Source: Eledone cirrhosa (Eukaryota). Taken from it: 64,000 bases of DNA. The notes beneath the pieces were generated by a model, which saw nothing but the letters and a program-made list of their open reading frames with translations, was not told where the DNA came from and made no database searches. The stretch lies in the NCBI GenBank assembly GCA_964016885.1, contig OZ024762.1, positions 22,630,001 through 22,694,000 on the forward strand. Direction: 5' to 3'. The translations under genes and the position numbers were made by a program. Shown piece after piece: positions 9,510 through 63,681 of this stretch; positions within the stretch are counted from its first letter, which is position 1; every line of letters begins with the position of its first letter.

Positions 9510-9552
9510 GTCACTGAAGAGGTCACAGGATGTGTGACGAAAGAACTTTGAC
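9510..9552 (+). ncRNA. Minimal type I hammerhead ribozyme motif
   Basis: GTCA-CTGAAGA-G-GTCACA ggatg TGTGAC-GAAA-G aa C-TT-TGAC; stems I and II pair perfectly. Confidence 0.75.
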
Positions 9553-10544
9553 AATATATAAACAACTATCTGGTTGTGGAACCAACCAACCAACCAGAAA
9601 TTTATAAATTTATAAATTCCTAAATTTATAAATTTATTATAATAAATTGAAGTGAAAGTAACTGGTGCATGTGTTTCTTATTGGCTACATGACCCTCCCA
9701 AAGTATAACAATATATATATATATATATATATATATATATATATATATATATATATATATATATATATATAGTATTAATAATAAATGTGAAGACTAAAAT
9801 CGCAAGAGGGCTCGATAAGGATAAATATATATTCACGTTAAGGGTGAAAGCAGCAATTCTTTGCTTAAACTTTAATCTGTTATTTTAATATATCTATCTA
9901 TCTATATATATATATATATATATACTGTAATAAAAGTTAAGTTGAAATATCCAAGAATAAGAGCACTCAGTCCATACCTATATATACATATATATATATA
10001 TATATATATATATATATATATATATATATATATATATATATATGAGGGTGTTAAAGTTTGCTTGAAGCATTGTGAAATGTTGTAAGAAATACGTATTTAT
10101 GAAAGCCACAACAAATGCAAAGGGAATATATATATATATATACCAATATATATATATATATATATATATATACCTATATATATTATATATATATATATAT
10201 AATATATATATATACTATATATATATATATATATATAATACCTATATATATATATATATATATATATATACCTATATATAGTATATATATATAGTATATA
10301 TTTATATATATACCTATATATATATATATATATATATATATATACCTATATATATAATATATATATATACCTATATATATATATATATATATATATATAT
10401 ATACCTATATATATATATATATATATATTTATATATATATATATATATATATATACTATATATACTATATATTATATATATATATATATATATATATATA
10501 TATATATACCTATATATATATATATATATATATATATATATATA

Positions 10545-10835
10545 ATGTAGGAGGTGAGTTTTATTGTAGTACAATAAAGCAATGCAGATATCGGATAAGA
10601 AGCACTCTACAGTTTGTAGGACTGGAGTATACATAATATATAAGATCAAAAGATGGTTAAAGGAGTTCCATGTATTTTATTATGCGCATTTCAAAACAAA
10701 CATCATCATGCAATAATATTTTTGTTTTGCATCAGATAGAAACAGGAGGACATGATATGAAGGCTAAAAAACTTAGATAAACTTATAATAAAATACATGG
10801 AACTCCTTTAACCATCTTTTGATCTTATATATTAT
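10545..10835. mobile_element. Short fold-back element in (TA)n, probable PLE pseudo-LTR remnant
   Basis: ~50 bp inverted repeat (ATAATATATAAGATCAAAAGATGGTTAAAGGAGTTCCATGTATTTTATTAT); its terminal ~115 bp recurs inverted at 25375-25490 and 26551-26665. Confidence 0.6.
10675..10742 (-). ncRNA. Minimal hammerhead motif with core variant CUGAUGC
   Basis: Minus strand: TTTCTAT-CTGATGC-AAAACAAA...TTTGTTTT-GAAA-T GCGC A-TA-ATAAAA. Confidence 0.65.
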
Positions 10836-12275
10836 ATATATATATATATATATATATATACCTTATATATAGTATATAATATATATACCTATATATATAT
10901 ATATATATATATATATATATATATATATATATATATATATATATATACATATACATACCTATATATATATATATATATATATATACCTATATATACCTAT
11001 ATATATATATATATTACAACTATATATATATATATACATATACCTATATATATATATACATAATATATACCGTATATATATATATATACCTATATATATA
11101 TATATATATATATATACCTATATATATACCTATATATTATATATACCTAATATATATATATATATATATATATATATATATATATATATATACATATATA
11201 TACCTATATATATATATATATATACCTATATATACTATATATATATATATACACCTATATATATATATATATTATATATACATATACCTATATATATATA
11301 TACATATATATACCTATATATATATATATATACCTATATATATATATATACACATACCTACACTTACATATATACACACACACATACATACATAGACATA
11401 CACACATGCATACATATATACCTATAAATATCAATATATATATATATGTATATATATATATATATATATATATATATATACACACATACATACGTATACA
11501 TACACACATACATACGTATATACATCATAGTCTTTTGCAGCAATAGGAACAACTAGTTTTATCTGTATACGTTACGATAAGTACCACGAGACTAATTAGT
11601 ATAAGTAATATATTCATATCACTTTGACTGACAGACTCAGAACAATTTATCTCGCTCCAACACTTCGAAATATCTAATTAAACGTTCCTTCTCATCATGT
11701 ATTTTTATATTTATCAAATTTGTGTCGAATAAATTGAATACACTACAGACCAATGAATATCTCTGCGTGTGTGTGGTATATATATATATATATATATATA
11801 TATATATATGGTGGCTGCCAACTCGTTTTCGAGTACGGCCACTACTTTATATCCATGTAGGAGAACCTCTACCGATGCGCTGAACGAGTGTGACTTTTTA
11901 GTTCAGCCAGCGACTTGAAAACTCTGGTACAAACACTACACTTGTGACAATTATTGACACATAGTGCTGGGCCCATGGTACCATATGATGACAAGTGCAG
12001 AGAGATCTCCAGATATTAAAGCAATGCCTGTGCCGTGAAGCTTTTATAGTGAGCAAAGGCACTGCACAAGCCAGTCCCTCTCTCTTAACCAATGTTGACT
12101 TGTTGTTCTTTTTGGTAAAATATCATATATATATATATATATTTATTATATATATATATATACATACATATACTTATACTTATATATGTATATACATATA
12201 CATATATAGACTCAGTTTAAATGTGTATGCGTATATATGAATATTTATATACGTATATCCAAGTGTATATATATA

Positions 12276-12637
12276 TATTATTCAAAATATTAAACAAATG
12301 AAGGATATTCACATAATCAAAATATATTCTTTATTATATATATTTCAAAGATACTATGTTGTTTTTTCCGTACGTCTTCATCAGATAAAATATATGATTT
12401 GATATATGTCATACTGCTACGGTCTTGATTATACAATTCCAGTATTGGCAGTACAATCAAGAATTATATAATCAAGAATTGTATAATCAAGACTGTAGCG
12501 GTATGTCATATATCAAATCATATATTTTATCTGATGAAGACGTACTGAAAAAACAACACAGTACCTCTGAAATATACAAAGGAAGCTTACATTTTGGTTA
12601 TATGAATAGCCTTCATTTGTTAATATTTTGAATAATA
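12276..12637. mobile_element. ~360 bp imperfect inverted repeat carrying two divergent hammerhead motifs (PLE inverted pLTR-like)
   Basis: Left arm TTATTCAAAATATTAAACAAATGAAGG...GAATTG mirrored by right arm; CTGATGA at 12384-12378 (-) and 12531-12537 (+). Confidence 0.7.
12330..12390 (-). ncRNA. Minimal type I hammerhead ribozyme motif
   Basis: Minus strand: TTTAT-CTGATGA-[imperfect stem II]-GAAA-T ATAT A-TA-ATAAA. Confidence 0.7.
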
Positions 12638-61149: not shown

Positions 61150-61880
61150 TTCTTTCTTCGTCTTCTATTCACCTACTTATTTCTGCAAAGGTCGTGGGGG
61201 CTGAGTCCTCAAACACTCCCTCCGGCGGGTCCAGTCAGAAGCAACCGTCTCTTATTGATCTGGCTGGATCCCCCGAGTAAGACTAGCCGAGTTCATGAAT
61301 GTTTTCCAAACATCTTGCTCGTGGTTTACCCCTGAGTCTCCTGCTAGTTGGTTTTGCCCGTAAAACCTGTCCAGCGATTCTCTCCCGAGACATTCTAACC
61401 CCATGTCCATAGTATCGGAACTGGATCTCCCAAGTAAGACCAGCCAAGCTCATGGATGTTACCCAGACATCTTGCTCGTGGTTTACTCCTGGGTCTTCTG
61501 CTGGTTGGTTTTGCTCGTAAAATCTCTCCAGCGATTCTCTCCCGGGAAATTCTAACCAAAAGCATCAACCAATTTTCTGTATGTGAAGTTTTTCCCAGCA
61601 AGAGATCAAAACTCCGATACTACGGCCATGTGGTTAGAATGTCTCAGTAAAGAATCACTGGAGATATCCTACGGGCAAAACCAACCGGTAGGCGACCCAG
61701 GGGTAGACCCCGAGCAAGATGGTTGGATAACATCCATGAGTTTGTCTGGTCTCGCTTGGGGATCCAGTCGGATCAATTGGAGACGGTTGCTTCCGACAGG
61801 ACAGGACCCGCTGGAAGGAGTGTTTGAGGACTTTGTCCCCACGACCCTATCAGGATTAAGTGGAAGAAGAAGAAGAAGTT
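61150..61880. mobile_element. RTE LINE 3' ends in inverted arrangement (minus 61150-61560, plus 61595-61880)
   Basis: SKLRYYGHVVRMS, AKPTGRRPRGRPRARWLDNIHE; (GAA)n tail; same family as 14790-15730. Confidence 0.85.
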
Positions 61881-62094
61881 ATTACTATCATCCCCACTAT
61901 CAGCTTCATAATCACTACTATCATCAACACCACCACCTCCACCATCAACATCGTCGTCATCACTACCACCACCACCACCACAACCATCAACACAACCACC
62001 ACAACCATCAACACAACCATCATCACCACCATTATCACCATCATGATCATCGTTTATATCTTCGTCGCCGTCGTCGTTATCGTTCATTTGTTCC

Positions 62095-62419
62095 TCAACT
62101 TACCTCCCCCCACCAAAGCTTTAAAGACCGCTGGTACAACCATCGCAATTCATTCAATAAGGAGGCCAAAAGGAAAAGCATGACTCTCTCCGACCTGATC
62201 TGGAAGCTTAAGCTAGACAGGACCCCGTACTCTCTGGCCTGGTACATAATCAGGAAAGTACCACCCGATAAATGGGGATCTTGTATATGCAAACTATGCC
62301 TGAACGAGACCCTCGAGATACTAAGAGGTGGAAGCGGACTGATAAACCTCAGAACCGACTTCTTCGGGACATGCAGACACCTTAGAGCCGGGACCTTCCT
62401 CAAGATATATGGACAGTAG
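62095..62419 (+). pseudogene. C-terminal part of a Penelope-like GIY-YIG endonuclease
   Basis: FKDRWYNHRNSF..TLSDLIWKLK..W.II..CKLCLNETLEI..LINLRTDFFGTCRH matches the PLE endonuclease pattern FKxRxxNH / LSxxIWxLK / CxLCLxE / CRH. Confidence 0.8.
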
Positions 62420-63626
62420 CAACACAAGAAGATGTGAACTCCCCTCAAGCTATAGGGACTTCTACAGAACATGTAAACACCTCTCGGCCAGAGCTCCCTC
62501 AAGCTATATGGGCAGTAACAACACCATAGGTTGTGAACTCCCCTCAAGCCATAGGGAACAACCCAGGCTGAGCAGACACCATGATAGCCTAGAGATTGAA
62601 TCGGACACAGCCATTATAATTTGGCCAACATCTATATAACACAAACACTTTTTAATTTACTTGATTTCTGATTATCAAGTTCCAATTTTAAATCTTGATT
62701 TCTCTTTATTAATTTGTTATTTGTTTTCTGCCCTCTTTACTGTATCACCTTATATTTATTTTTAAGTTGAGATTGATTATAACACAAACACATTTTGTTT
62801 TATTATCTTATTTTAACATCTTGTCCCTCATACCAATCTATCCAACATATTTCTGACCTTGAGATTGGTTATAGCACACACACACTTTATCCTACATTAT
62901 TTTCACTTCTCCATATTCATTTTCATTACTTTTTCACCAATTTTTTATTTATTCTTTATTCTCTATTTATTTATTTTCAAATTATACAAATTATATTAAT
63001 TATTTTATTATAATATTTATTTTCTGTTTTCTTCATTTATTGCCTTATATTTCTTCATATACATGGAAGAACCCCCCCCCTCCCCACCACCACCACCACT
63101 ATGAGAGATGGTGGCAGGAGAGATGAAGAAAAAACACACACTGGATACTTCTAAATTGTCAGCAGCAGCAAGACATAAGCTGACCACAACACCAACAACA
63201 CTACCAAAATAATGGTAGAGGTCAAATGTACTTAACAATAGCAAACACAAACACTACAGGGAGCCTCACCCCAGAAAGAATTCTATAGACTTCTGACTGA
63301 GGAATGCTCTCAGAACTGACCAATGGGAAGTTTGACACTTTTTTTGTTATTTTGTTCCTTTAACACCTTGTCCCTTCTACCACTTTATCAATTTTTTAAG
63401 CTAACTCCAACAATAACAACACTTAGAATGAGGAATGTTCTAATAACTGACCAATGAGAGGAGAAGAAGCCCTGTAACACTGAAATTCGTTTGTTTGAAT
63501 TAATATGATTCCATTGTGAAATAACAACCTCAGTGAAATAACAACCCAACCAGGAACTGGGCATATCAGAGTATTGACAAAATGATACACCTCAACAACA
63601 TATGTACTTGTCTATACCACATTCGG

Positions 63627-63681
63627 ACTGCCTGAAGAGGTCACAGCCAAAGATGGCTGTCACTGAAATATATTTAGCAGT
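63627..63681 (+). ncRNA. Minimal type I hammerhead ribozyme motif
   Basis: ACTGC-CTGAAGA-GGTcACAGCCA aaga TGGCTGTcACT-GAAA-T ATAT T-TA-GCAGT, immediately followed by AATAAA. Confidence 0.8.

Follow-up and report, generated by a model that had tools for sequence, protein, structure and literature searches.

The 64,000-nucleotide stretch of Eledone cirrhosa DNA considered here (GenBank assembly GCA_964016885.1, contig OZ024762.1, positions 22,630,001 to 22,694,000 of the forward strand; hereafter the window, numbered from its first letter) contains a series of hammerhead ribozyme motifs lodged in islands beside (TA)n arrays. These islands are very likely the dead or decaying 3' ends, that is, pseudo-long terminal repeat pieces, of at least seven families of Penelope-like elements (PLEs). 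What is observed comprises the motifs and their enrichment, their link to TA runs, local inversions, paired alternative 3' ends, sister copies lacking the ribozyme, an endonuclease remnant of the Hydra clade of PLEs and, for one hammerhead type, covariation in helix I. The motifs are of a known kind and are at most new family members.

A first-pass annotation of the window had listed nine motifs with the boxes CTGANGA and GAAA, and all nine sites are present, with core starts at 9514+, 10735-, 12384-, 12531+, 13271+, 28039-, 56602-, 57641- and 63632+ (its minus-strand positions were the low ends of the motifs). The CUGANGA box is intact in eight of the nine; the site at 10735 reads CUGAUGC and is thus no CTGANGA motif. 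A descriptor of the type I topology recovered 16 cores in the window from the boxes alone, 12 with at least two helices and three with all three helices. Across 300 block-wise dinucleotide shuffles, the corresponding means were 4.4, 0.91 and 0.03; a single shuffle reached the observed number for the boxes alone and none did so for two or three helices. Similarly, 166 permuted decoy cores run on the real sequence yielded maxima of 10, 5 and 1, and the reversed window gave two, zero and zero hits. The frequency of the motifs is therefore above that of dinucleotide-shuffled sequence, the comparison that the annotation had put forward as a check. Of the three hits with all three helices, two are the listed motifs 9514 and 13271; the third, at 47615, had not been listed. 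Two further hits among the 12 with at least two helices, at 51321 and 36997 (the latter inside the frame of a long interspersed nuclear element, LINE), are probably due to chance.

The motif set is real and its quality is uneven. The annotation claimed paired flanking stems for most of the nine, of which only 9514 and 13271 pass all three helix tests; only 2 of 12 folded candidates have a z below -2. The weak single members 12531 and 9514 are not provable alone. Rfam gave no hammerhead match in the window at the gathering threshold and none in two local E-value scans, and in an E-value scan across the entire window, where TA repeats overwhelmed other matches, no hammerhead was among the 150 of 601 matches listed. 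These shortcomings are what might be advanced for the motifs being chance matches in AT-rich, hairpin-rich sequence. Against this stand the shuffle, decoy-core and reversed-sequence controls, together with the strand-polar association with TA and the helix I covariation described below, and we regard it as extremely improbable; for the set as a whole, a chance origin is refuted by the shuffle and decoy-core controls. Other topologies added little: the type III arrangement gave three hits, two of them re-read type I sites and one in unrelated sequence, and a search of the window for U3-A8 and one-mismatch variant cores gave one weak hit. Two further minus-strand CTGANGA boxes, at 13634-13710 and 46436-46495, have a TA run 77-79 nt downstream and lack a GAAA box.

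When copies of the nine islands were compared within the window, self-BLAST separated seven families, in agreement with the estimate of about seven in the annotation; 9514 and 63632, though counted as separate families, agree in the core and over the initial 8 nt of helix II. The helix III palindrome is perfect or has one unpaired base in six of the nine (10735, 12384, 13271, 28039, 56602 and 57641), is partial in 9514 and 63632, and is lost in 12531. An extra nucleotide between A9 and helix II is clear in four (9514, 13271, 56602 and 57641). Minimal hammerheads number thousands per genome in the account of Cervera and de la Pena 2014 (PMC4209133) and are heterogeneous; most are single and derive from truncated elements, some form pairs on opposite strands at distances of 100-700 bp, and they have an additional base following A9 and a palindromic helix III. 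The window motifs resemble these minimal hammerheads of metazoan PLEs in the type I core, short helix I, extra nucleotide after A9, palindromic helix III, heterogeneity within one genome and opposite-strand pairs; they differ in that several have long helix II loops and in that the families are unmatched to a named consensus. This anatomy and the link to TA, both described in PMC4209133 and by Craig et al. 2021 (PMC8557442), support the assignment to PLE minimal hammerheads that the annotation had made.

The association with TA is strand-polar, lying at the 3' side of the cores. A (TA)5 run occurs within 200 nt downstream of all nine listed cores, as against 0.239 of unmasked positions (binomial p 2.5e-6) and two of 27 other CTGANGA cores; within 150 nt it is found for six of the nine. 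Since the nine sites had been chosen by a reader who noticed the TA runs, we also counted independent loci, with a single count for the inverted pair and with the non-TA cluster included, whereupon eight of nine have a downstream TA run (p 7.5e-5). Upstream, a TA run lies within 300 nt of seven of the nine. The proposal that TA arrays are a preferred target is supported by the downstream runs, and (TA)n targeting is described in PMC4209133 and PMC8557442. The accompanying picture of small islands bounded by TA fits most of the sites; 57641 and 63632 do not form small islands.

Within the islands, the constant feature is the 3' end. The 9514 island (9510-9710, +) carries a minimal type I hammerhead with a CUU triplet, a predicted cut after 9548 and a 162-nt 3' end running into (TA)n; the last 34 nt of this family stand alone, without the ribozyme, in a TA array at 40338-40371 (+; 97% identity, E 7e-11). 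The 10735 island (10547-10745, -), in which the broken core (CUGAUGC, A9 changed) is accompanied by a perfect palindromic helix III, has its 3' end at +136 (positions with a plus sign count nucleotides after the predicted cut). Two sister copies lacking the ribozyme, at 25376-25492 (+, 99%) and 26551-26667 (+, 97%; possibly a local duplicate of the former), begin about 20 nt downstream of the cut and keep the same 3' end. The 56602 (56485-56730, -; predicted cut after GUC at 56575, 3' end at +90) and 57641 (57515-58766, -) copies, each with a 2-bp helix I, likewise have a common 3' end; the former is a 245-bp island, and 1.1 kb of C/A-rich sequence separates the latter from the next TA run upstream. 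In this upstream part, 57760-58766 is strongly G/T-rich on the + strand, possibly as a decayed element body. A common 3' end with variable 5' truncation is thus seen in the 10735, 9514 and 56602/57641 families, and the same 3' end is kept by three ribozyme-less copies of two of them. It follows that the ribozyme is not needed for a copy to exist. At 63490-63740 (+), the 63632 core has a 5-bp helix I, an imperfect helix III, about 140 nt of upstream family sequence and a TA run at +64; a second member of its family (46582-46721, +) ends right after CUGAUGA and has high read depth.

Three of the listed islands contain the local inversions noted in the annotation, all head-to-head (10547-10835, 12278-12680 and 27972-28161). 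In the first, the inverted short arm (10785-10835, +) spans from 3 nt ahead of the predicted cut to +45. In the second, the inverted arm with core 12384 (12278-12455, -) has a short 3' end at +56, and the forward arm with core 12531 (12456-12680, +) has a long one at +100; the latter core is degenerate after GAAA, as had been reported, lacking U16.1, the cleavage site and helix I. In the third, the inverted arm with core 28039 (27972-28045, -) has a weak helix II, a perfect palindromic helix III and a short 3' end at +39, and the forward arm (28043-28161, +) starts from the GAAA box, 14 nt before the cut, and has a long 3' end at +105. Each foldback therefore displays two alternative 3' ends (+45/+136, +56/+100 and +39/+105). 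With the unlisted 27229 family discussed below (+17/+97, resting on an unproven half motif), this holds for four of four hammerhead-bearing foldback families, and in these three islands and the 27229 family the inverted copy is 5'-truncated with a tail on one arm.

From the literature we infer that each family descends from PLEs, that reverse transcription was target-primed and that cleavage is assisted by a dimer or by protein. In the scheme we propose, the minimal type I hammerhead of each family would sit 40-160 nt upstream of the 3' end; the (TA)n array would be nicked by the GIY-YIG endonuclease of the element; and the reverse transcriptase (RT) would start at either of two internal sites, giving the short and the long 3' end. 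Early fall-off of the RT would be usual, leaving a short island, and an inverted second copy would often be added, giving the head-to-head pairs. Being close to the 3' end, the hammerhead would then be retained in the islands, and shorter copies would lack it. A biochemical counterpart is Poseidon PAc of Anolis, for which Frangieh et al. 2024 (PMC11167929) describe in vitro nicking of AT-rich DNA and a tail that arises from two RT start sites; its hammerhead cleaved only with the protein, insertion did not require it, and RNA ends at the cut were not seen. The window is alike in the AT-rich target, the two 3' ends (two RT start sites in Poseidon) and the hammerhead near the 3' ends, and differs in tails of 44-91 nt and in being known from sequence alone.

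A remnant of the expected protein is present. The frame 62096-62416 had 1810 protein matches at E<=0.001 (best 1.4e-18), was grouped with GIY-YIG clusters at 0.92-0.96 in the ESM Atlas, and by protein search and motifs corresponds to the C-terminal half of a Hydra-clade PLE GIY-YIG endonuclease (62096-62419, +) carrying the CxxC, E, N and CxH marks. In the three longest intact ones of eight relatives retrieved (P0003, P0108 and P0148), this endonuclease comes after an RT with YRDD and DKT; RWR and CxCx5C are additionally present in two of the three. The marks given for the Hydra clade in PMC8557442 are a C-terminal GIY-YIG with CxxC and CxH around conserved E and N, and an RT with DKT, an RWK-like motif and CxCx5C. 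The RT of the window's own remnant is missing, and 62096-62419 was the sole match in the window to six Hydra-like queries. Among longer proteins, a word-indexed search with the endonuclease gave no hits, Pfam missed it in the window and placed GIY-YIG below the cut-off for 2 of 11 relatives, and a metagenome scan with P0003 gave 99 pattern matches, none of which was confirmed.

The likeness to Hydra-clade PLEs extends beyond the protein. Craig et al. give (TA)n as the target both of Hydra-1_Obim, which has a hammerhead, and of octopus Naiads; of the 27 Hydra families that they list, 25 prefer (TA)n, and they regard an inverted copy plus tail as a PLE hallmark. Shared with the window are the GIY-YIG with CxxC and CxH, the (TA)n target, the inverted truncated copy with a tail, and a hammerhead near the 3' end whose 4-bp helix III closes on a loop of 1-2 nt, as at 13271. 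The latter (13261-13427, +) is the best-formed hammerhead of the window and, on a by-eye comparison with File S2 of PMC8557442, has Hydra-type anatomy: helix I of 7-10 bp, helix II of 10 bp, helix III of 4 bp with a 1-nt loop and the triplet GUA. Its minimum-energy fold is the full hammerhead, and its helix III arms are by eye those of the published Hydra-1_oBim motif. A difference is that helix III of most listed motifs departs from the Hydra type. In the literature on hammerheads, octopus and Penelope, PMC8557442 was the sole relevant paper found; the available text of a 2026 octopus repeat annotation (PMC13282606) reports 31 recently active Penelope-like families and makes no mention of hammerheads.

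Further support for the fold comes from the 56602/57641 type. A pattern built on its core with helix I left out was searched in metagenomes and gave 13 outside loci, which form about four related groups (L009 and L013 look identical). Together with the two window sequences, pair 1 of helix I is kept in 15 of 15 with two pair types, pair 2 in 14 of 15 with three, and pair 3 in 6 of 15, counts that are not independent because the rows are related. Slid registers of helix I pair in only 1 of 15, 1 of 30 and 3 of 30. The register is therefore fixed, with the cut after GUC and a helix I of 2-3 bp. None of the 13 outside loci has a downstream TA run or a PLE frame, and this hammerhead type is thus not bound to TA everywhere. 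At three of the 13 (L003, L009 and L013) there is a head-to-head inversion at the core, with one arm beginning 2-3 nt before CUGANGA, as at 28039 in the window.

Several points weigh against the islands being PLE 3' ends. Besides the relatedness of the covariation rows and the outside loci devoid of TA runs and PLE frames, none of the listed hammerheads is contiguous in the window with a PLE reading frame. The stop of the endonuclease frame at 62419 lies 1213 nt from the 63632 core, as against about 150-180 nt by eye in two Hydra consensus sequences, and the two are probably separate insertions. No protein match was found for the 1.1 kb upstream of 57641; the one-arm tails of 44-91 nt are longer than the usual 30-40 bp; and none of six short window motifs was found in the consensus file of PMC8557442, where line breaks limited the search.

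The annotation had further suggested that some islands are ribozyme-only mobile units. For the listed islands this is not upheld, as sister copies without the ribozyme exist (25376, 26551 and 40338) and none of the nine is in head-to-tail tandem, the outcome expected of random 5' truncation. Retrozymes as non-autonomous PLE derivatives are already published (PMC7229834; bioRxiv 10.64898/2026.07.22.740005). With non-LTR retrozymes the window shares non-coding units, a type I hammerhead, a proposed derivation from PLEs and, in the 328-bp array described below, the right unit size; it differs in that the nine islands are not tandem and that, in the array, no two neighbouring units both have an intact ribozyme and the unit itself is not dispersed.

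A broader form of this idea, in which some islands are fixed-end non-autonomous units (mini-PLEs or retrozyme-like) copied in trans by a TA-targeting PLE, finds its best possible candidates in two unlisted families. One is headed by a perfect 114-bp foldback with an 80-nt tail at 27229-27423, with a possible hammerhead 3' half in each arm. To it belong a second foldback at 45216-45372, whose forward arm has its start within the junction overlap, 4 nt ahead of the putative cut, and a single short arm at 56996-57052 (+). The arms have GAAA, a 6-bp helix III and GUC without a CUGANGA box, and end at +17 in three cases and +97 in two. The 114-bp palindrome may stem from snap-back at a long helix II; a search of viral contigs with the pattern of this family gave no match. 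The other family consists of a half-core island at 23871-23963 (+; 23874), with CUGAUGA at 23905, GAAA 27 nt upstream and no helix II, and its sister at about 53750-53847 (+; 53756). A type II reading of these two, with GAAA before CUGAUGA around a hairpin, was rejected as helix II is missing. Fixed ends are suggested by the common start, 40-41 nt before the putative cut, of four arms at three 27229-family loci, and by the agreement of 23874 and 53756, which are 30 kb apart and clearly diverged, at both ends within about 4 nt; moreover, non-autonomous PLE derivatives exist (PMC8557442; bioRxiv 2026.07.22.740005). However, neither family has a complete hammerhead, so they are no ribozyme-only units; the common start could come from snap-back at one hairpin or from internal TA-like microhomology; and the listed families have variable 5' ends, ribozyme-less copies and no tandem members. 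We therefore consider fixed-end units unlikely, if compatible at some loci with the islands being PLE 3' ends.

The GAAA plus helix III half motif occurs dozens of times and is, at this frequency, no evidence by itself. Accordingly, the further foldback islands beside TA, mostly with a one-arm tail and without CUGANGA (26797-27206, 46092-46349, 57331-57455 and 60666-60806), are not called ribozymes. The string GAAACAGTT, present at 57415 and 46123, is shared with a published Hydra hammerhead, and the orientations disagree.

A tandem array at 46719-47748 (-), missed in the annotation, comprises three units of about 328 bp with cores at 46858, 47186 (C3 changed) and 47615. In each unit the helix II region of the hammerhead core measures 44 nt. 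Two units end in a deleted head of a short interspersed nuclear element (SINE) in the same orientation, and one unit is followed by a 28S ribosomal RNA fragment. This fragment (about 47360-47445, +; E 5e-8, below the gathering score) and the GC-rich sequence after it take the place of the SINE head between two hammerhead units, in the orientation opposite to them. The sole complete hammerhead of the array is that at 47615, and there are hence no two consecutive complete units; consensus folding of the three hammerheads with their 44-nt helix II regions found no common hammerhead fold.

Four read runs were compared with 46560-47345 at 80% likeness, three of them (X1-X3) from one sample, possibly the source of the assembly, and the fourth (X4) a restriction-site-associated DNA (RAD) run. 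The depths given here are not copy numbers, and there is a coverage hole in the second unit. Contig depth is 1-11 over the spacer of the first unit (46938-46991), where the locus's own contigs have 4-5; it is 149-332 over the 46858 hammerhead, falling steadily upstream, as favours a truncated 3' end; and it exceeds 130,000 over the SINE head, about 1000-fold apart from the ribozyme. The RAD run ranks spacer, hammerhead and SINE head in the same order. This contrast points to separate repeats joined locally, namely a modest-copy hammerhead family and an abundant SINE, and the tandem looks like a local duplication of a hammerhead-SINE junction.

The array could instead belong to a dispersed retrozyme family with a SINE head and a hammerhead, given that its three units match retrozymes in size and all contain a hammerhead core, and that two of them end in a SINE head in the same orientation. 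We hold this to be quite improbable, although it too can be compatible with PLE 3' ends at some loci: the spacer is near single-locus depth as against the far higher values of hammerhead and SINE head, C3 is changed in the middle core and helix I is missing from the last, and runs of 4-5 T, which act as polymerase III terminators, lie between SINE head and ribozyme and would stop that polymerase. The schistosome SINE-like hammerhead repeats (PMC6765202) are alike in joining a promoter-like head and a hammerhead in one unit; the window differs in a junction that appears local and in the T runs that separate head from ribozyme.

As to the setting, 20-27 kb of the 64 kb are masked as simple repeat, marking the window as microsatellite-rich animal DNA. 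A decayed LINE with endonuclease, RT and zf-RVT domains occupies 33725-38571 (+), and 32710-33006 is a partial direct repeat of its downstream end. Copies of the SINE are abundant and often tandem and partial (17041-17594, 23036-23569, 31870-32666 and 43085-43273); its head has very high read depth, and the element presumably resembles octopus SINEs. A 60-bp family with common ends and no ribozyme motif is found in three TA arrays (9772-9832, 44138-44198 and 45071-45131).

Finally, the foldback islands might record hammerhead cleavage in vivo: the RT would run off the 5'-OH end of the cleaved RNA, and the product would template the second arm. Arms start 3-4 nt before the predicted scissile bond at two of the five foldback loci (10785 and 45272), within possible junction microhomology, and a post hoc estimate puts the chance of such starts at 0.03-0.09, with one case resting on an unproven half motif. 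In the literature, only PMC11167929 was found to bear on the idea, and it saw no RNA ends at the cut. We deem the idea unlikely. If true, short cleavage-defined RNAs could serve as fixed-end non-autonomous units. The islands would gain in significance if arm starts pile up at the cleavage site genome-wide, since the DNA would then bear a trace of in vivo cleavage by PLE hammerheads, whose cleavage was unneeded for insertion in vitro (PMC11167929). If the islands are indeed PLE 3' ends, several TA-targeting PLE families would stack ribozyme-bearing ends densely in microsatellite arrays, where Rfam misses them.

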